From a virus (taxonomy: Duplodnaviria; Heunggongvirae; Uroviricota; Caudoviricetes), in the IMG/VR virus record IMGVR_UViG_2563367003_000003: 8,520 nt of DNA. One strand, 5' to 3'. Positions 1 to 6,872 of the stretch are shown in pieces (position 1 is the first letter of the stretch; each line of letters begins with the position of its first letter). The translations under genes were made by a program, and so were the position numbers. The notes below the pieces were generated by a model. It did not search any database and was not told where the DNA came from. It worked only from the letters and a program-made list of their open reading frames with translations.

Positions 1-1053
1 ATGACGTTACCACTAAGAGATTACTATCCTATTGAGCGCGCGGCAAAGTTATTAGACTGCGATATTGATGATCTTATTCATTGGGCTGTGACAGGCTGCA
101 TTCGTATTTGTATAAAAATTGAATCTGCATATGGAGTATTAAATATCCCAGATGAAAAAGATGTGGTTAATTTCGATTGTCTGCGTAAGTTTCTGGATTC
201 AGAACCATGTAAATCACGGTTATCTGACCTTGATGCCATTTCAGAAAGGGCGGCAGAACACCATGGTTTTAATTATATAAAAACCAAGTCGAGAATTATA
301 TTTGATTCAATGTGCGAATCTCTAAGTCATTCATATGTAGCGCCCAAATTTGGTGACATAGCAATTGATACTGCATTTGCTTTGTTAAATTATTATAACA
401 GGGGGTTATATTATGGGGAAAATTATCACATATATAGTGTATATCGAATAGCAACGGATGAAAGAGCTGTGGCAGTTGTACCACCAGTATTTAAAGGTAT
501 TCAAGAAAAATACCATAAGTATTTTGTTGAAATAGGCGGTATTTTCGCTTTGGGGGGAAGTTTTTTTGCCAACTATGATTTTAATAAGAAGTTTAAAGCC
601 AACCGAATAATTAATAGCAATATTATAATTGCTTCTGACGTTGATATACATATAGGAGTAATTGTTACTGAGGATGTTTCTTTTGATATTGGTGATTTAT
701 ATATCTTAAAGAGTGATTTTTTAAAAATACAAAATGCTACAAGCTCCAATAGCGAGTTAAGAAAAGATTATGTTAATCCATTGGCAGACACTTTATATTT
801 GTGTGCGGGTAACAATATATTAAGCTCTGAGGATGGAGAGAAAGATATATGCACCAATAAAAACAATATAGAACGATTATCTAAAACAATGAAGGATTTT
901 TTTCGTGCGATGCTTGTTATTCATTATAAAGAACTCGAAAACAATCCGGTAAAACTTGCTGATATATTGACCGCGGAAGCAAAAGAGGCAGGACTCAATA
1001 TGCGCTTTGATAAAAGTACTATATCAAGATGGATTAAGGCATCATCTCAGTAA
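1..1053 (+). CDS. Hypothetical protein, 350 aa, AT-rich cargo-like gene of unknown function; weak HTH-like segments at both termini
   Basis: Long uninterrupted ORF from the track. By eye it is clearly more AT-rich (mid-30s % GC in sampled 60-nt stretches) than the primase and integrase genes (about 50%). N-terminus (YPIERAAKLLDCDIDDLIHW) and C-terminus (KLADILTAEAKEAGLNMRFDKSTISRWIK) look like helix-turn-helix segments. No catalytic motif recognised. ATG at position 1, so the true start could lie upstream of the window. Confidence 0.6.
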   Translation: MTLPLRDYYPIERAAKLLDCDIDDLIHWAVTGCIRICIKIESAYGVLNIPDEKDVVNFDCLRKFLDSEPCKSRLSDLDAISERAAEHHGFNYIKTKSRIIFDSMCESLSHSYVAPKFGDIAIDTAFALLNYYNRGLYYGENYHIYSVYRIATDERAVAVVPPVFKGIQEKYHKYFVEIGGIFALGGSFFANYDFNKKFKANRIINSNIIIASDVDIHIGVIVTEDVSFDIGDLYILKSDFLKIQNATSSNSELRKDYVNPLADTLYLCAGNNILSSEDGEKDICTNKNNIERLSKTMKDFFRAMLVIHYKELENNPVKLADILTAEAKEAGLNMRFDKSTISRWIKASSQ

Positions 1054-1601: not shown

Positions 1602-1725
1602 CAACCAGTCAAGGATGTGCATTTAGTGCACCTGAAATCAACAATAAGAAACAATAGGCAGAAATGATTATGGCTTTTTTACTCTTAAAAATCAATTACT
1701 CAGCGCAATCGCGCAAAAATAATTT

Positions 1726-1765
1726 GCAATATTGCTTGACTCGCTTTTTTGTCATGGCGTATCGT
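1726..1765 (+). promoter_or_regulatory. Candidate sigma70 promoter for the small-gene/primase operon, with an operator-like palindrome abutting the -35
   Basis: TTGACT (1736-1741), 18-nt spacer, TATCGT (1760-1765). Perfect 10-bp palindrome GCAATATTGC (1726-1735) directly 5' of the -35; further GCAAT half-sites at 1704-1708. The upstream part of track ORF 1664-2191 has no RBS and is better read as leader. Confidence 0.35.
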
Positions 1766-2017
1766 TTGCCCGCACCTCATAAAACAGGTGCCGGGTTTGA
1801 CAGCCTGAACAATCAAGCGGGTAGCCGCTATATTTCCGTAATGCGGTTTTTTTGTGCCCGTAATTCCACCCTACCCCGTATTATGGCGGGGCGTAATGGG
1901 GGAGCCTTTGCGCTCGCTGGTTCCTTGATTGCCAGTCTGTCAACCCTGTTACGTCCCGCCACCATGTTTGACAGCGTGCTGGCGAGACTCCGTAAACTTA
2001 ATCAAGGAGCCGCCAAA

Positions 2018-2191
2018 ATGGCTATATCAACACGCCCTGATTTTATCTGGCGCTTTATGCAGTGCCACGGTAAAAATATCCGCCTTCATACCGTTACCGC
2101 CGCCAGTGAGCGCGAAGCGCGCGCCCTGCTTCCGGCATCCCGTCTGGTCTTTGTTGCCCGTATTCGTGTCCGGGAGGCGTGCCATGTTTAA
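2018..2191 (+). CDS. Icd/Ash-like small protein, 57 aa, first gene of the overlapping small-gene operon
   Basis: Internal ATG at 2018 in frame with track ORF 1664-2191, preceded by a consensus SD AAGGAG (2005-2010, 7-nt spacing). Segment FIWRF...HTVTAASEREARALLPASRLVFVARIRV resembles the Ash/Icd-like family motif as I remember it; needs HMM confirmation. Confidence 0.5.
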   Translation: MAISTRPDFIWRFMQCHGKNIRLHTVTAASEREARALLPASRLVFVARIRVREACHV

Positions 2192-2366
2192 GATCCTTAT
2201 TACCCTGATTAACTACCAGAACGGCGACGTTCGCCAGATGATTCATTCCTGGGAATATCCGACTTATGACGATGCATGGCGTGATGCCTGTCGTATGGCA
2301 TATTCCCGCAATGACAAACAGGGGCGATTAACTCACAAATGCGCAGTAAAAATCATGGAGGGGTAA
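2184..2366 (+). CDS. Hypothetical small protein, 60 aa
   Basis: ATG at 2184 in frame with track ORF 1929-2366, preceded by SD GGGAGG (2172-2177). Overlaps the stop of the upstream gene by 8 nt, suggesting translational coupling. The longer 145-aa reading lacks an RBS. Confidence 0.5.
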   Translation: MFKILITLINYQNGDVRQMIHSWEYPTYDDAWRDACRMAYSRNDKQGRLTHKCAVKIMEG

Positions 2367-2368
2367 CG

Positions 2369-2557
2369 ATGTACGAGATTCATATTAAATTGCGTAATGT
2401 GGTAACAGGAGAGGAAGAAAACTTCCACACGATACGTAAATATAAATCAAAAGGAAAAGCGGCAAGGGACGCTATCAGGTATACGGAAGAAATTGCGCCG
2501 AAATATCAATTGCCAGAAGAAGAGCTCACAGCATCAGTGGTAAAGGTGAAGAAATGA
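2369..2557 (+). CDS. Hypothetical small protein, 62 aa
   Basis: ATG at 2369 (MYEIHIKL...) in frame with track ORF 2339-2557, preceded by SD GGAGGGG with about 6-nt spacing and starting 2 nt after the upstream stop. Lys/Glu-rich. Confidence 0.5.
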   Translation: MYEIHIKLRNVVTGEEENFHTIRKYKSKGKAARDAIRYTEEIAPKYQLPEEELTASVVKVKK

Positions 2558-2772
2558 AAACCCGTTCAGCATCCCGTAAATATAGCCGTAATACTGAAAA
2601 ACGTTTCTTTGTGCTGGGTTATGCCGTTAATAAACGCGGGTTAACCAAACATGCACATGCAACGGTATACGGAGCGGAGCCAGGCGAAGCCATACGCCGC
2701 GCAGCCGAAGGACTGGAAAAGCTGGGAATGACGCATTTCAGAGCGTTGAAGGTGACGCAGCTTTCCGCCTGA
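2554..2772 (+). CDS. Hypothetical small basic protein, 72 aa
   Basis: Start ATG overlaps the upstream stop as ATGA (2554-2557), indicating translational coupling. Basic N-terminus (RSASRKYSRNTEKR). No family recognised. Confidence 0.5.
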   Translation: MKTRSASRKYSRNTEKRFFVLGYAVNKRGLTKHAHATVYGAEPGEAIRRAAEGLEKLGMTHFRALKVTQLSA

Positions 2773-2840
2773 TTCCCGAATTATCCACTGATAACTGAAT
2801 TAAATTTATATTTCGACCTTAACGGGTCGGGGGAGTTTTT

Positions 2841-3146
2841 ATGTCTGAAAATCAGAATTACGCAGATATTTTAGATAAAGAATACATTGGATTTTTTACA
2901 GAGAGTGCAAAAGAAGATCTCGCAGATGTAATTAACCTCATCGATCTTATATCCATCATGTTTGGTGAGAGGGATTGCGGAGCATCTTCAGAAATCACAA
3001 ACAAAGCAATTGTATCTCTGTTTAATATTATTTATCGGGAATTAGAAACAATAAAATCTGGTATGCATCTTTCTGGCGGTATTTTTTCATGGCACAAAGC
3101 TGAAGCCGCAGGGATTACCAAGAAACAAGAAGTAACGAGTAATTAA
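2841..3146 (+). CDS. Hypothetical protein, 101 aa, AT-rich moron-like gene directly upstream of the primase
   Basis: SD GGGGGAG (2829-2835) 5 nt before the ATG. Lower GC than its neighbours. Bracketed by a 5-bp hairpin (CGACC/GGTCG, 2814-2829) and a strong 3' hairpin. No recognisable motif. Confidence 0.55.
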   Translation: MSENQNYADILDKEYIGFFTESAKEDLADVINLIDLISIMFGERDCGASSEITNKAIVSLFNIIYRELETIKSGMHLSGGIFSWHKAEAAGITKKQEVTSN

Positions 3147-3150
3147 TAAA

Positions 3151-3185
3151 ACCCCACTGCAAAAGGTGCAGTGGGGTGGAGTTTT
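3151..3185 (+). terminator. Strong stem-loop (11-bp stem) with a short U-run, between the 101-aa gene and the primase start; possible terminator or attenuator
   Basis: ACCCCACTGCA (3151-3161), loop AAAGG, TGCAGTGGGGT (3167-3177), perfect complement. Followed by GGAG then TTTT (3182-3185), so the U-tract is 4 nt from the stem and not canonical. The hairpin contains the GTG at 3166 that the ORF track uses as the primase start. Confidence 0.4.
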
Positions 3186-3189
3186 ATAT

Positions 3190-5865
3190 ATGAAATCTGA
3201 CATCAGAAAAGAGATTATTAACCGTCTTATCCGTGATTACAACTTCAAAGAAGAAAATAACTACCTCCGGTATGGTGTTTGTCCGCAATGTGGAAAGAAA
3301 GAGTTGTTTACCAGCCTTGAAAGGCCGTACATCGTACACTGCGGGCGTGAAAATAAATGCGGTACAGACCTGCTGACTAAAGAACTTTACCCGGATGTGT
3401 TTTCATCATGGTCAGATCGCTATATCAGTACGAAAGATGAACCATACGCAGCGGCGGCAGCTTATCTCCTGGAGGCACGCAATATTGCTACAGAGCCACT
3501 GAAGGGGGTATTTACCCAGGAGCGATACAAAGACAAGGAAAGCGGCGAACAGGCCGCTACTGTGCGTTTTACGCTGGCTGACGACGTGTGGTGGGAGCGC
3601 ATCATAGACCGACCGGAACGCTTCGAACGGAAGGCGAATTTTTCCGGCAGCTACAAGGGGTTGTGGTGGGCTTATCCGGGAGCAGATTTAAGCAAGGCCA
3701 AAGAAATCTGGATTTGTGAGGGTATCTTTGATGCCATCAGCCTTAACCAGAATGGCATTGCGGCCGTTTCTGTCATGTCTGCCGTGAGCTACCCTGATAA
3801 GGCACTGGAAGAGCTGGCGAAGCTGTGCGGGGATAATCCCCGTCCGGTTATCGTGTGGGCGCTGGATAACGGGCGTGCAGGTGAGCGTTACGCGAAAAAA
3901 CATGCAGAACGCAGCGCCGAAGACGGCTGGAGAACGGCAGCGGCGTTGCCAGGTAAAAACAACAATAAACGCGACTGGAATGATTTACACATCGCCGGAA
4001 AGCTGCGTGGCCATGATGTGAAAAGATACCGTTATTACGGTGATTTATTGCTGGCGAAATCTCCAAGAGATAAGGCACTAATAATGTTTTCCTTTCGTGA
4101 GCGGAAGGAATTTCATTTTACTTTTGATAACCGTGTTTTCTGGTTCAAGCTGGACATTGAGCGCCATATGAAGGCTGTTGAGCGTGTCATTAATGAGCGA
4201 AATGTTGATGAGGATGAAGCGCGCAAAATTGCACTTAAGGAATCTGGTGCAGTAAAAGAAATCGCAAACTGTAACCCAGCGCCGCTTTATTACATTCGAA
4301 ATAATGACACGGATGAAGCATGGTATTACTTCCGTGTTACGTTCCCGGATGGTGCTACGGTGAAAAACACCTTTACATCAGGACAATTAACATCCTCATC
4401 TGAATTTAAAAAACGCCTGTTACACGTGGCAAAAGGCGGTATTTATACCGGAACGACTACGCAGCTTGACGCATTAATAAAAAATGACCTTCCCGCAATA
4501 AAAGAGGTTATTGGTCAGGATTTTATCGGATACAACAAGGCGATTGGGGCATGGCTGTTTAATGATATTGCTGTTTACAAGGGAAAAACTTATGAAATCA
4601 ATGACGAGGATTATTTTGAAATTGATGGCATAAACGCAAAACCATTAAGCGAAAAACCCACATTACAGATTAACTACAAAAAACCGGATGAATTTACAGC
4701 GTCCTGGGTGGAAGATCTCTGGCTGGCTTTTGGTGAAAAGGGAATTATTACCCTGGCTTTCTGGTTGGGCTCCCTGTTCAGCGAACAAATCCGGGATAAA
4801 GAAGAATCCTTCCCTTTCCTTGAAGTCACCGGAGAGCCCGGAACGGGCAAATCAACATTGATTGATTTTTGCTGGCGGCTGTGCGGTCGTGACAACTACG
4901 AAGGAGTTGATCCAACCAAAGGATCAGAGGCGGGCTGGAAGCGCACCTTTGGACAGGTCGCCGGATTGCCTGTTGTTCTGATTGAAGCAGACCGGGGAGA
5001 CAATGCGCAAAAAAGAGGTGCGTTTGACTTCGATAACCTGAAAAGCCTCTATAACGGTGGCGGTATCGGTGTTCGTGGGGTTAAGGCCAACAATAACAAC
5101 ACCTATGACCCGGATTTTAAGGGCGCTATCGTGATTGCGCAGAATGCGCGGGTAAATGCCTCGCCGGCAATTATTGAGCGCCTGATACGCATATACACCG
5201 ATAAAAAACGCCATTCACCTGATACCCGACTGGCGGCGAGACGGCTGGAACTCTACCCCGTCGAGAAGGTATCGGGGTTTATTCACCGGGCGGTAAGTCA
5301 GGAACGGGCGATTATGCAAACGTTCCTGGAAGTATCGCCCGCTGAAACGGAACGCCTTTGCGGATGCGAAAATATTCGCCATCCCCGTATTGCCAAAAAT
5401 CACGCGCAACTTATCGCGCTGGTCAGGGCGCTGAAATGCGTTATCGATATCCCGGATGAATGGCTTGATGCCACATGTCTGGAACTGGAACAAATGGCAA
5501 CGGCGCAGGTTAAAGCGGCGGCGGCTGACTTGCCAGAAGTGATGGAGTTCTGGGAGGCGTTCGACTTCCTGGACGGCATAACAAAATACGGTGTAAACCA
5601 TTACGGCAAGGGATGCCGCGAAGGGATTGCTATCAGTATTCCGCAACTGGCACAGGCTGCCGCCATTCACCGCGTGGAGATCCGAACCGATCGCGAAATG
5701 ATTGAGTTGCTCGGAGCTGGGCGTTCCCGACCGTTGACAGGCCGTAAAACCATTCGTAGTGAGGTGTCCAGACAGGCAAACGCCGGAAAAGGAGTAGCCG
5801 AAGCCAGAGAGCCGGAAGTACTGAAATGCCGGATATTCAGTTACAAGGAGGTCACCGAAAAATGA
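3190..5865 (+). CDS. Bifunctional DNA primase/helicase, P4 alpha-like replication protein (zinc ribbon + TOPRIM-type primase + P-loop NTPase)
   Basis: Track ORF 3166-5865 begins with GTG inside the hairpin; the first ATG at 3190 has SD GGAG (3178-3181). Motifs: zinc ribbon CPQCG...HCGRENKCG (about nt 3279-3363), TOPRIM-like EGIFDAISL (about 3715-3744) with ALDNGRAG (about 3859-3882), Walker A GEPGTGKST (about 4832-4858), Walker B-like VVLIEAD (about 4970-4990). Architecture matches P4-family primase/helicases. Confidence 0.85.
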   Translation: MKSDIRKEIINRLIRDYNFKEENNYLRYGVCPQCGKKELFTSLERPYIVHCGRENKCGTDLLTKELYPDVFSSWSDRYISTKDEPYAAAAAYLLEARNIATEPLKGVFTQERYKDKESGEQAATVRFTLADDVWWERIIDRPERFERKANFSGSYKGLWWAYPGADLSKAKEIWICEGIFDAISLNQNGIAAVSVMSAVSYPDKALEELAKLCGDNPRPVIVWALDNGRAGERYAKKHAERSAEDGWRTAAALPGKNNNKRDWNDLHIAGKLRGHDVKRYRYYGDLLLAKSPRDKALIMFSFRERKEFHFTFDNRVFWFKLDIERHMKAVERVINERNVDEDEARKIALKESGAVKEIANCNPAPLYYIRNNDTDEAWYYFRVTFPDGATVKNTFTSGQLTSSSEFKKRLLHVAKGGIYTGTTTQLDALIKNDLPAIKEVIGQDFIGYNKAIGAWLFNDIAVYKGKTYEINDEDYFEIDGINAKPLSEKPTLQINYKKPDEFTASWVEDLWLAFGEKGIITLAFWLGSLFSEQIRDKEESFPFLEVTGEPGTGKSTLIDFCWRLCGRDNYEGVDPTKGSEAGWKRTFGQVAGLPVVLIEADRGDNAQKRGAFDFDNLKSLYNGGGIGVRGVKANNNNTYDPDFKGAIVIAQNARVNASPAIIERLIRIYTDKKRHSPDTRLAARRLELYPVEKVSGFIHRAVSQERAIMQTFLEVSPAETERLCGCENIRHPRIAKNHAQLIALVRALKCVIDIPDEWLDATCLELEQMATAQVKAAAADLPEVMEFWEAFDFLDGITKYGVNHYGKGCREGIAISIPQLAQAAAIHRVEIRTDREMIELLGAGRSRPLTGRKTIRSEVSRQANAGKGVAEAREPEVLKCRIFSYKEVTEK

Positions 5866-6872
5866 CGATAAAGAAGTTGGTTAACGGTAAGTTTGCTGTG
5901 GACGTGCGGCCTGCAGGAGCAGAAGGAAAAAGATTCAGGCGGCGATTTGATACTCGTGGTGAAGCAGTGGCGTATGAACGCCATGTTCTGATGCACTACC
6001 ACAACAAAGAGTGGGTCGAAAAGCCCATTGAACGTAAAGCGTTAAGCGATCTTCTGGAATTATGGTGGGCGTATCATGGCAAGAATCATCGTTATGGAGC
6101 GATGACGCGGGTAAGAATTGAAGCTGTTCTTTGTGATATGCGCGAACTTGGGATAAACAGAAGCGATCATTTAACCCGGAAAAATATTATCAGATATCGA
6201 CTTAAATTAATGAATCGTGGAATTAAACAGTCAACAGTAAATCGCTATTGTGCCATGATGAGCGGTTTCTTTGAAAAGCTGATTGATGCTGAAGAGTTTG
6301 CGGGTAATAACCCGTTTCGCGAGATACGTAAGTTAAACATTAATCAGCCAGAAATGGCTTATCTTGCACATGATGATATTTCCAGGCTAACCGCGCTTTT
6401 ATCTGGCGATAATCTTAAGGCTGTATTGTTGTGTCTGGCTACAGGTGGGCGCTGGGGTGAGATTGCCAATATTAAAGGTGAGCACATAATTGGCGGAAAG
6501 GTTATTTTTATGAAGACAAAGAACGGCTCAAGGCGGGTCGTTCCAATCGCTAAAGATCTTGAATCACTGGTCAAAGTAAAGGCGACCGGAAGATTAATGA
6601 AACCTAATTATGCAACTGTCAGAAGTGCAATAAGGACTGTGCGGCCTGATTTACCCGTCGGTCAGTCTGTGCATGTTTTACGGCATACCTTTGCCACTCA
6701 CTTTATGATTAATGGTGGAAACATCATCACATTGCAGAAAATACTAGGACACAGCACTATTCAGCAGACGATGACTTACGCGCATTTTGCACCGGATTAC
6801 CTGGCAGATGCCATGAGATTTAACCCGGTAGCCAACATAGTGATCACCGAAGAAAAAGAGCCAGCAGAGTAA
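5862..6872 (+). CDS. int: Tyrosine recombinase, P2-Int-family integrase, 336 aa
   Basis: N-terminus MTIKKLVNGKFAVDVRPAGAEGKRFRRRFDTRGEAVAYE and the catalytic region (GGRWGEIANIK; HVLRHTFATHFMINGGNIITLQKILGH; TMTYAHFAPDYL with the tyrosine nucleophile) closely parallel P2 Int as I recall it. Near-consensus SD AAGGAGGT (5845-5852). The ATG at 5862 overlaps the primase TGA (5863-5865) as ATGA. The track start at 5826 is an upstream in-frame extension. Confidence 0.9.
   Translation: MTIKKLVNGKFAVDVRPAGAEGKRFRRRFDTRGEAVAYERHVLMHYHNKEWVEKPIERKALSDLLELWWAYHGKNHRYGAMTRVRIEAVLCDMRELGINRSDHLTRKNIIRYRLKLMNRGIKQSTVNRYCAMMSGFFEKLIDAEEFAGNNPFREIRKLNINQPEMAYLAHDDISRLTALLSGDNLKAVLLCLATGGRWGEIANIKGEHIIGGKVIFMKTKNGSRRVVPIAKDLESLVKVKATGRLMKPNYATVRSAIRTVRPDLPVGQSVHVLRHTFATHFMINGGNIITLQKILGHSTIQQTMTYAHFAPDYLADAMRFNPVANIVITEEKEPAE

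Follow-up and report, generated by a model that had tools for sequence, protein, structure and literature searches.

The stretch of DNA analysed here (8,520 nt, hereafter the window) lies in an island adjoining gcd in E. coli N50. Judged by sequence homology, the leader upstream of its small-gene operon is the immunity region of a phage-satellite-like island of E. coli, and a homologue of P1 immI and of the P4 immunity leader. The region very probably constitutes the immunity or commitment control of a P4/PICI-like E. coli satellite island, built on a P1-type c4-icd module. The homology, the structure, the complementarities, their covariation and the conservation of the attenuator are all established for this element. 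Regulatory systems of this kind are well understood already; the island itself was previously uncharacterised and carries its own specificity barcode. By analogy with the known systems, the module would be the most likely cause of the quiescence of this E. coli island. The coordinates of the features discussed below are given in Table 1.

Table 1. Features of the immunity region and of the operon behind it, with positions in the window
Feature	Position	Strand	Basis
175-aa ORF in frame with icd, spanning leader RNA and C4	1664-2191	+	ORF list; start lies upstream of the promoter
Perfect palindrome GCAATATTGC, adjoining the -35 hexamer	1726-1735	.	Sequence check
Candidate sigma-70 promoter TTGACT-18-TATCGT	1736-1765	+	Promoter scan; -35 at 1736-1741, -10 at 1760-1765
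Putative isrK / P4 seqA-type leader RNA	1772-1853	+	Rfam RF01394; fold z = -2.6; same element in P4 and P1
5' hairpin of the isrK leader	1772-1791	+	Part of the isrK leader
a1 hairpin of the isrK leader, followed by b1, attenuator and U7 run	1792-1807	+	Part of the isrK leader
a1 target TTGACAG, in hairpin loop	1797-1803	+	Exact 7-nt complement of a' (1937-1943); aligns with P1 a1
b1 target CAATCAAG(C)	1810-1818	+	8-nt exact complement (1810-1817) of 1924-1931; aligns with P1 b1
Hairpin H1, AGCGG/CCGCU, proposed antiterminator, 5' arm overlaps b1	1816-1829	+	Minimum-energy fold
Putative terminator T, AGCCGC (1823-1828) with GCGGUU (1843-1848), into U7 (1847-1853)	1823-1853	+	Terminator stem of the isrK model
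Putative C4 / P4 CI-type antisense RNA	1879-1966	+	Rfam RF01695; fold; ~79% identity to P1 c4
a2 target TTGACAG, 5 nt past the predicted C4 3' end	1968-1974	+	Exact complement of a'; aligns with P1 a2
b2 target AATCAAGGA, overlapping the Shine-Dalgarno sequence	2000-2008	+	9-nt exact complement of 1922-1930; aligns with P1 b2
Shine-Dalgarno sequence AAGGAG of the 57-aa ORF	2004-2009	+	Sequence check
57-aa Icd (P1) / Kil (P4)-like ORF, first translated gene of the operon	2018-2191	+	NF033153; identity to P1 Icd
Small operon ORFs	2184-2366, 2369-2557, 2554-2772, 2841-3146	+	ORF list; they overlap or abut
Toprim/P-loop primase, end of the operon	3190-5865	+	Pfam Toprim; PHROG 1139 DNA primase, E = 3.9e-298; RefSeq

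An Rfam scan of the full 8.5-kb window gave three matches, all of them inside the leader region. The C4 antisense RNA family (RF01695) matched positions 1879-1966 with 74.6 bits against a gathering score of 45 (E = 1.4e-13) and over model positions 1-87 of 87. The isrK family (RF01394) matched positions 1772-1853 over the full length of its model with 52.2 bits, a marginal pass of the gathering score of 50 (E = 3.5e-09), and the match of c4-a1b1 (RF03163) to positions 1759-1811, at 35.6 bits, fell short of the gathering score of 46.7. A tRNA scan found no tRNA in the window. The same Rfam trio is present in the same order in the vis-epsilon region of P4 (isrK 60.8, c4-a1b1 44.1 and C4 74.9 bits), the immunity region of which reads P_LE - seqA/t1 - CI - seqC - kil/eta - epsilon ... 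alpha. IsrK has been equated with P4 seqA, and C4 with the P4 CI RNA, as structural homologues (PMC3632133; PMC4825925), and the Rfam C4 and isrK profiles match Gram-negative PICIs (PMC10111431). In a BLASTN comparison with phage records, positions 1791-1976 of the window were ~79% identical to phage P1 immI/c4 over 186 nt, and the P1-like phages D6 and JL22 were matched by the same segment. The P1 record annotates two c4 promoters, a1, b1, the 77-nt C4 RNA, a2, b2 and icd; by pairwise alignment with this record every annotated P1 immI feature transfers onto the window. An earlier note on this DNA had compared the leader with P4 immunity and suggested an analogous RNA-based or repressor-based switch. 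The RNA-based part of that suggestion stands, as homology and not merely as analogy in view of the shared Rfam trio, and the part that gave a palindrome the role of repressor operator falls away, as described below. The C4/CI-type RNA at 1879-1966, the four target sites and the position of b2 over the ribosome-binding site of the Icd/Kil-like ORF were missing from that note.

For the 88-nt C4 segment the predicted fold, at -45.8 kcal/mol (z = -5.9), is a long closing stem with two inner hairpins. In the minimum-energy fold the b' segment (1922-1931) lies in the loop of the second hairpin and the a' segment (1937-1943) in a single-stranded junction, and the architecture of the C4 family, with its long closing stem, two hairpins and single-stranded recognition segments a' and b', is present. 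In P1 and P4, RNase P cuts the C4-type RNA out of the leader, and the stable product of ~77-79 nt acts as a repressor in trans. Mapping of the ends from the P1 C4 annotation predicts a mature form of 79 nt at 1885-1963, followed by ACCA. A MAFFT alignment of 80 C4 sequences revealed compensatory pairs in the inner helices; the outer stem was misaligned in it, and the covariation is limited to these inner helices. Folding and covariation across homologous elements, which the earlier note had named as a check, thereby came out positive, both in the compensatory inner-helix pairs and in the covariation of the b sites across relatives that is described below. The stem followed by ACCA resembles the acceptor end of a tRNA.

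Exact 7- to 9-nt complements of a' and b' were found only at the four places that correspond to the P1 model. The window holds two copies of AATCAAG in its 8.5 kb, one at 1811 and one at 2000, and TTGACAG occurs in the whole window at 1797 and 1968, plus an unrelated copy at 5734. The arrangement agrees with P1/P7 immI (c4 - icd - ant) in the position of the promoter, in the order a1, b1, C4, a2, b2, icd, in the identical a sites and in the location of b2 at the icd ribosome-binding site. The 57-aa ORF that follows b2 scored 55.7 bits against the Icd-like family NCBIfam NF033153 (cut-off 25) and has 48% identity to P1 Icd (E = 3e-14), and the start codon of P1 icd aligns with ATG 2018. Icd-like genes are present in most Enterobacter satellites (PMC13612085). 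By analogy with P1 and P4 we propose that this Icd/Kil-like ORF would be the direct target of repression, and the operon at 2184-5865 is presumed to be under control of the leader. The island differs from P1 in that it lacks ant, icd being followed by small ORFs and a primase, and in that it is without a C1 operator. The primase yielded only motif-level matches to P4 alpha, at Walker A and Toprim (E = 2e-4), and is not a close homologue of it. Since the cargo thus differs from that of P1, with no ant, and the primase is not close to P4 alpha, the biological output of the switch is an assumption.

The main difference from P1 concerns the b sites, the 7-nt core of which is another one in all three places: the core of the window is CUUGAUU in b' and AAUCAAG in b1 and b2. 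Calculated for the loop segments, the b':b2 duplex has an energy of -20.2 kcal/mol for the window and -15.1 kcal/mol for P1, whereas cross-pairing between window and P1 gave -4.1 and -5.6 kcal/mol (that is, -4 to -6 against -15 to -20 kcal/mol for cognate pairs). These energies are for loop segments only; whole-molecule values are blind to the structure of C4 itself and were discarded. Because cross-pairing is so weak, an immunity specificity separate from that of P1 is predicted despite the identical a sites.

A family scan of public genomes and viral contigs, with a pattern that required a1...a' and left the b sites free, yielded at least 240 loci from many proteobacterial orders, and 205 unique loci were analysed; L016, L110 and L240 are chance matches of the scan pattern. 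Among the matches listed, a perfect complement of b' of at least 7 nt was found in the b1 region at 169 of the 205 unique loci, as against about 3% in a mismatched-locus control, and the same 205 loci hold at least 141 distinct b' cores among the matches listed. In the 21 relatives tabulated by hand, which include islands 91-95% identical to the window, the 7-nt core shared by b', b1 and b2 is locus-specific and covaries perfectly in all three places (21/21), and b2 abuts the Shine-Dalgarno sequence in every one of them (21/21). We propose, on the pairing model, that the 7-nt b core would set the specificity of immunity. An RNA barcode of 7 nt that differs between close islands predicts which elements would be mutually immune.

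The isrK-type leader contains two alternative hairpins. The earlier note had pointed to an AGCGG/CCGCT hairpin, to a second stem followed by a run of T, and to an attenuator-like character of both. The hairpin (AGCGG 1816-1820, CCGCT 1825-1829) and the second stem (CCGC 1825-1828 with GCGG 1843-1846, then T7 at 1847-1853) are present as described, and they turned out to belong to a conserved family attenuator, which stands far above chance by its motif, its U-run and its three-strand covariation. Both hairpins share the CCGC strand, and they would form a conserved antiterminator/terminator pair that abuts b1. The minimum-energy fold of the free leader contains H1 (-8.3 kcal/mol), and only a 4-bp stem then precedes the U-run. 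When a1 and b1 were blocked, as if bound by C4, the minimum-energy fold switched from H1 to T (-7.4 kcal/mol). By sequence and position T would be the counterpart of the IsrK terminator and of P4 t1. On this folding model we infer that pairing at b1 would destabilise the antiterminator and favour termination, so that the antisense RNA would control its own synthesis and a short IsrK-like RNA would be set free. It is not certain that termination depends on the antisense RNA, because the energies of H1 and T are close and because T is already the predicted fold of the unblocked leader in P1 and in one relative (L056).

Conservation of the attenuator was assessed in the same family. Among the matches listed, a run of at least five T is present at the position of U7 at 160 of 205 loci, in sequence of ~60% G+C, and the motif GCGG-N3-6-CCGC-N6-20-GCGG-U-run was found at 93 of the 205. 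At 80 of these 93 loci, which represent 54 different b cores among the matches listed, the b1 complement overlaps the first G of the motif by exactly 1 nt. In addition, at least 21 loci that lack the exact motif show covariation of all three strands (for example GGUGC/GCACC/GGUGC and GGCGC/GCGCC/GGCGC), with a b1 overlap of 1-3 nt. A crude family test that compared terminator formation in free and blocked leaders was not discriminating, as weak 4-bp hairpins were counted as terminators, and the conservation of the attenuator rests on the analysis of motif and covariation instead. The attenuation and bypass behaviour of P4 t1 and eta is known at the functional level. The work of Briani et al. 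2000 (Mol Microbiol) reportedly places t1, a Rho-independent terminator that needs CI RNA and seqA, between P_LE and cI of P4, and is said to have found that termination at t1 is stimulated by CI in vitro. The family-wide structural rule observed here, by which b1 is adjoined by a three-strand attenuator, may be new to the literature. Tentatively, and with more doubt than confidence, one might generalise that C4-type RNAs across Proteobacteria would be "barcoded", trans-acting and self-regulating inducers of intrinsic termination, to which satellites would add an open frame across the RNA gene, unconserved as protein, through which the mere transit of ribosomes would serve as a bypass of immunity. 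The conserved attenuator beside b1 would constitute a compact natural design for RNA-triggered transcription termination that is testable and reusable.

The course of events that we propose borrows RNA processing, repression, termination and bypass from P1, P4 and Gifsy-1. Transcription would start at about position 1772 from the constitutive promoter at 1736-1765, and the transcript would carry the decoy or target sites a1 and b1 first and then the three-strand attenuator. In transcripts that read through, the tRNA-like stem structure would be processed to give a stable antisense RNA of ~79 nt (1885-1963), whose a' and b' would anneal to the a2 and b2 sites of transcripts made later and so cover the ribosome-binding site of the Icd/Kil-like ORF (2018). 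The untranslated RNA would then undergo termination, which the P1 and P4 models attribute to Rho-dependent polarity; the operon of small genes and primase would stay off and the element would remain quiescent. Pairing at a1/b1 would overlap the 5' arm of H1 and free the shared CCGC for formation of T before U7; with CCGC freed for T, the RNA would therefore limit its own synthesis and yield a short IsrK-like RNA of ~82 nt. The b core (CUUGAUU in b', AAUCAAG in b1 and b2) would fix the specificity of immunity. Transcripts that originate upstream of 1664 could be translated through the region as an eta-like ORF and in this way escape the block.

The leader RNA might also have a positive role, as in the Gifsy-1 IsrK / STnc1160 - orf45 - anrP system of Salmonella. 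There, an isrK-family leader ends in an intrinsic terminator past which some transcription continues, a stable C4-like RNA is processed from the read-through transcript, and a small first ORF is coupled to what lies downstream (PMC4825925); for the island these features are predicted. Gifsy-1 differs from the island in that its short RNA is an activator, in that the gene downstream is antirepressor-like and leads to AntQ expression, and in that orf45 overlaps the C4-like element. It is possible, but in our estimate clearly the less probable case, that positive control of this type is the main function here, the 1772-1853 RNA acting in trans as an anti-antisense RNA or by refolding the long transcript; to a similar, limited degree we reckon with the RNA being more than a by-product of attenuation and turning on the Icd-like ORF and the operon at the level of translation, which would be compatible with the repression model. 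The isrK match does exceed its gathering score, a2 and b2 have exact decoys in a1 and b1, in Gifsy-1 the short IsrK RNA stimulates translation from the read-through transcript by a factor of more than 100 (PMC4825925), and the IsrK-like elements of P4-like prophages were required in a transposon-insertion screen of S. Typhi (PMC3632133). The pairings mapped in Gifsy-1, however, involve orf45 sequences in a different arrangement, and the dominant role described for the module in P1 and P4 is repression.

The candidate promoter TTGACT-18-TATCGT that the earlier note had listed is present at the position given and gained support, as it aligns with the annotated P1 promoter P1c4 (formerly P51b) and its position is kept in divergent relatives. 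Its match to the consensus is unremarkable, and six promoter-like sites were found where shuffled sequences lead one to expect 3.5 +/- 1.9. By alignment and position it would be the counterpart of P1 P1c4 (P51b) and of P4 P_LE. The predicted transcription start is G1772, and the match to the isrK model also begins at 1772.

The same note had proposed that the palindrome next to this promoter resembles an operator. The palindrome is there, at 1726-1735, and an operator role for it did not hold up. A protein repressor bound to GCAATATTGC, either the AlpA-like protein or a helper-phage repressor, is improbable as the main switch of the operon, even though the palindrome adjoins the -35 hexamer, the identical 10-mer occurs again at 3479, which is mildly unusual, and the corresponding region of P1 contains a C1 operator. 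Perfect 10-bp palindromes occur in the window at the chance rate (7 seen against ~8 expected); the palindrome is broken in one relative (L227) and absent in the distant relatives L141, L168, L186, L056 and L033, which retain promoter and RNA module, and in most relatives the homology seen by BLAST does not reach further upstream than the -10 hexamer and start site. Because of this chance-level frequency and lack of conservation we rejected the palindrome as an operator, which it probably is not. A minus-strand promoter-like site, ATGACA-16-AATATT, runs from 1755 to 1728, and the palindrome core AATATT constitutes its -10 hexamer.

The RNA module lies in an island of unusual make-up. The leader is preceded, in this order, by genes for an integrase, for a 350-aa protein of unknown function and for an AlpA/excisionase-like regulator. 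It is followed by icd plus four small ORFs, by the Toprim/P-loop primase and by a second integrase gene that overlaps the stop of the primase; after these come an ogr/Delta-like gene, a gene annotated 'P2 family major capsid protein' and MazEF. This composition, with two integrase genes nearby, could be taken to mean that the module is an inactive relic in a decaying island, which we consider very improbable: all its parts are intact and match the models over their full length, the operon ORFs are intact and tightly packed, and relatives 91-95% identical to the window carry different b cores that have changed coherently in three places, which points to recent selection on function.

A nested layout of the eta/kil type is present, since the long ORF starts upstream of the promoter and spans the RNA gene. 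In P4, eta spans P_LE, seqA and CI and contains kil in frame; it is translated only from an upstream late promoter, and its translation prevents termination while the same DNA yields CI RNA from the internal promoter (PMC10111431). The equivalent long ORF of P4 lies at 8168-8812, and the old 'cI protein' ORF of P4 ends in an Icd-like domain (73.9 bits, NF033153); in P4 as in the island, an Icd-like domain ends a long ORF that spans promoter and RNA gene. In satellite-type relatives the frame is open for 330-600 nt through paired 1-nt indels that shift it and then restore it, whereas in P1 and in P1-type relatives the frame closes 33 nt upstream of icd. By analogy with P4, 1664-2191 may be an eta analogue, its frame held open across the RNA gene, a reading to which we give about equal belief and doubt. 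The argument is weakened because, in the wider, GC-rich family, each of the three frames is often open through the C4 region (at 70, 65 and 29 of 205 loci, among the matches listed). The earlier note had observed that the long ORF lacks a ribosome-binding site until 2018, and AAGGAG (2004-2009) does precede ATG 2018. It had further held that translation of the 175-aa ORF as a single protein would count against a switch in the leader, a view that does not carry over, as P4 eta is translated and the same DNA nevertheless makes CI RNA.

That the region is merely the 5' part of a gene for a protein of 173-175 aa, with RNA-family matches that have no function here, is the least credible reading: the frame 1664-2191 is uninterrupted and kept open in satellite-type relatives, and RefSeq annotates a 173-aa 'Icd-like protein' here and the same in every relative, but only residues 127-169, in the last third, match the Icd family, P1-type relatives close the frame, third-codon-position substitution bias within the long ORF is confined to 2018-2191 and absent from the C4 segment, the amino acids over the RNA region are not conserved in satellite-type relatives where frames shift and recover, the variation tracks RNA pairing and the three-way covariation of the b sites, and the start of the ORF lies upstream of a conserved promoter. 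The RefSeq entry would thus represent a systematic annotation error, in which a single 173-aa protein stands for what is actually a promoter, two RNA elements and a 57-aa gene.

Further candidates were rejected. An Ogr/Delta-type late promoter, TGT-N12-ACA at 1518-1535, as the driver of the long ORF, was absent in every relative checked, and the window contains two such motifs in total, this one included. A minus-strand small RNA running from 1662 to 1570 has a fold that is not unusual (z = -1.5).

The island also resembles P4 in that an AlpA/Vis-like gene lies upstream of the leader and a primase gene at the end of the operon, and, by functional analogy, in that replication genes of a satellite would be kept off. 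The a and b sequences are different from those of P4, and a gap of 195 nt separates the alpA-like gene from the long ORF, whereas P4 eta starts inside vis. The P4 capsid-remodelling genes sid and psu were found neither in the window nor in the flanks of the island locus (L001), which contain the ogr/Delta-like gene and the 'P2 family major capsid protein' gene instead. The island would work like P4 but, with a primase that shares only motifs with P4 alpha, it falls outside the strictly defined P4-like satellites (int, alpha, epsilon, sid, delta, psu, alpA). A match to the region was present in 108 of 5,426 complete E. coli genomes (~2%), always on the chromosome.

Among the matches listed (hundreds of loci, L003-L242), the upstream target site a1 and the C4 recognition segment a′ that pairs with it (TTTGACAGCC ... 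CTGTCAACCC) were invariant, and b was hypervariable. Besides viral contigs, the loci carrying a1 and a′, as listed from two scans, represent Beta-, Gamma- and Deltaproteobacteria. Judged from these sequences, a is effectively a universal recognition site among the matches listed, and b would act as the specificity barcode.

Some contigs contain two tandem C4 modules (1343-1535 and 1700-1947 on contig L166; 1067-1207 and 2930-3070 on contig L010). In addition, in the group of relatives represented by L168 the 3′ terminus of a further Icd-like gene lies directly in front of their own leader promoter. Together, the tandem modules and the extra Icd-like 3′ end suggest that immunity cassettes have been duplicated or stacked.

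In every E. coli relative examined, RefSeq/PGAP draws a 173-aa "host cell division inhibitor Icd-like protein" across the promoter, the isrK-like RNA and the C4 RNA, and no ncRNA feature is annotated over this region in these relatives. The coordinates of this annotation in locus L001, and those of the other features described here, are given in the following table.

Positions of features in and around the C4 leader (window coordinates unless another locus is named)
Feature	Position	Strand	Remark
350-aa ORF	1-1053		between the upstream integrase gene and the AlpA-like gene
TGTGAACACGTTGCTACA	1518-1535		matches TGT-N12-ACA, the motif of late promoters activated by Ogr/Delta
9-bp GC-rich hairpin, then T8	1581-1602	minus	form of a canonical leftward terminator
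Promoter-like sites	1755->1728 and 1695->1667	minus	
Inverted repeat ACCCCACTGCA...TGCAGTGGGGT	3151-3177		perfect 11-bp stem; terminator-like score on both strands
Tyrosine integrase gene	5826-6872		overlaps the stop codon of the primase gene (ATGA at 5862-5865)
173-aa Icd-like protein annotation	L001 9171-9692		counterpart of window 1664-2191

The window contains no leftward gene to the right of the minus-strand terminator, and the minus-strand segment 1662->1570 shows nothing out of the ordinary in its fold (z = -1.5). The sequence at the terminator position differs in relatives L227 and L245, yet a leftward hairpin followed by a T-run recurs there, some 70-90 nt before the long ORF begins. 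This terminator and the minus-strand promoter-like sites could be signs of a short transcript, divergent or antisense, arising from the promoter region. As to TGTGAACACGTTGCTACA, situated after the alpA-like gene and before the long ORF, the motif is absent from all relatives checked, and the match is probably due to chance.

A second integrase gene is located upstream of the window and a gene for a "P2 family major capsid protein" downstream of it (L001 6286-7485 and 16897-18168, respectively). In relatives L245 and L248 (1-519) the capsid gene is positioned directly upstream of the C4 leader, where it replaces the AlpA-like gene. The presence of two integrases and the placement of the capsid gene look like an unusual satellite architecture, or like tandem elements. 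The 350-aa ORF had no match in Pfam or PHROG.

The inverted repeat is placed between the end of the last small ORF (3146) and the start of the primase gene (3190), and may constitute an internal attenuator or processing site within the operon. Separately, the 10-bp palindrome GCAATATTGC is present in two identical copies, one at 1726 beside the leader promoter and the other at 3479 within the primase gene; by a rough estimate, given the 7 palindromes in the window, the chance of its occurring twice is about 2%.
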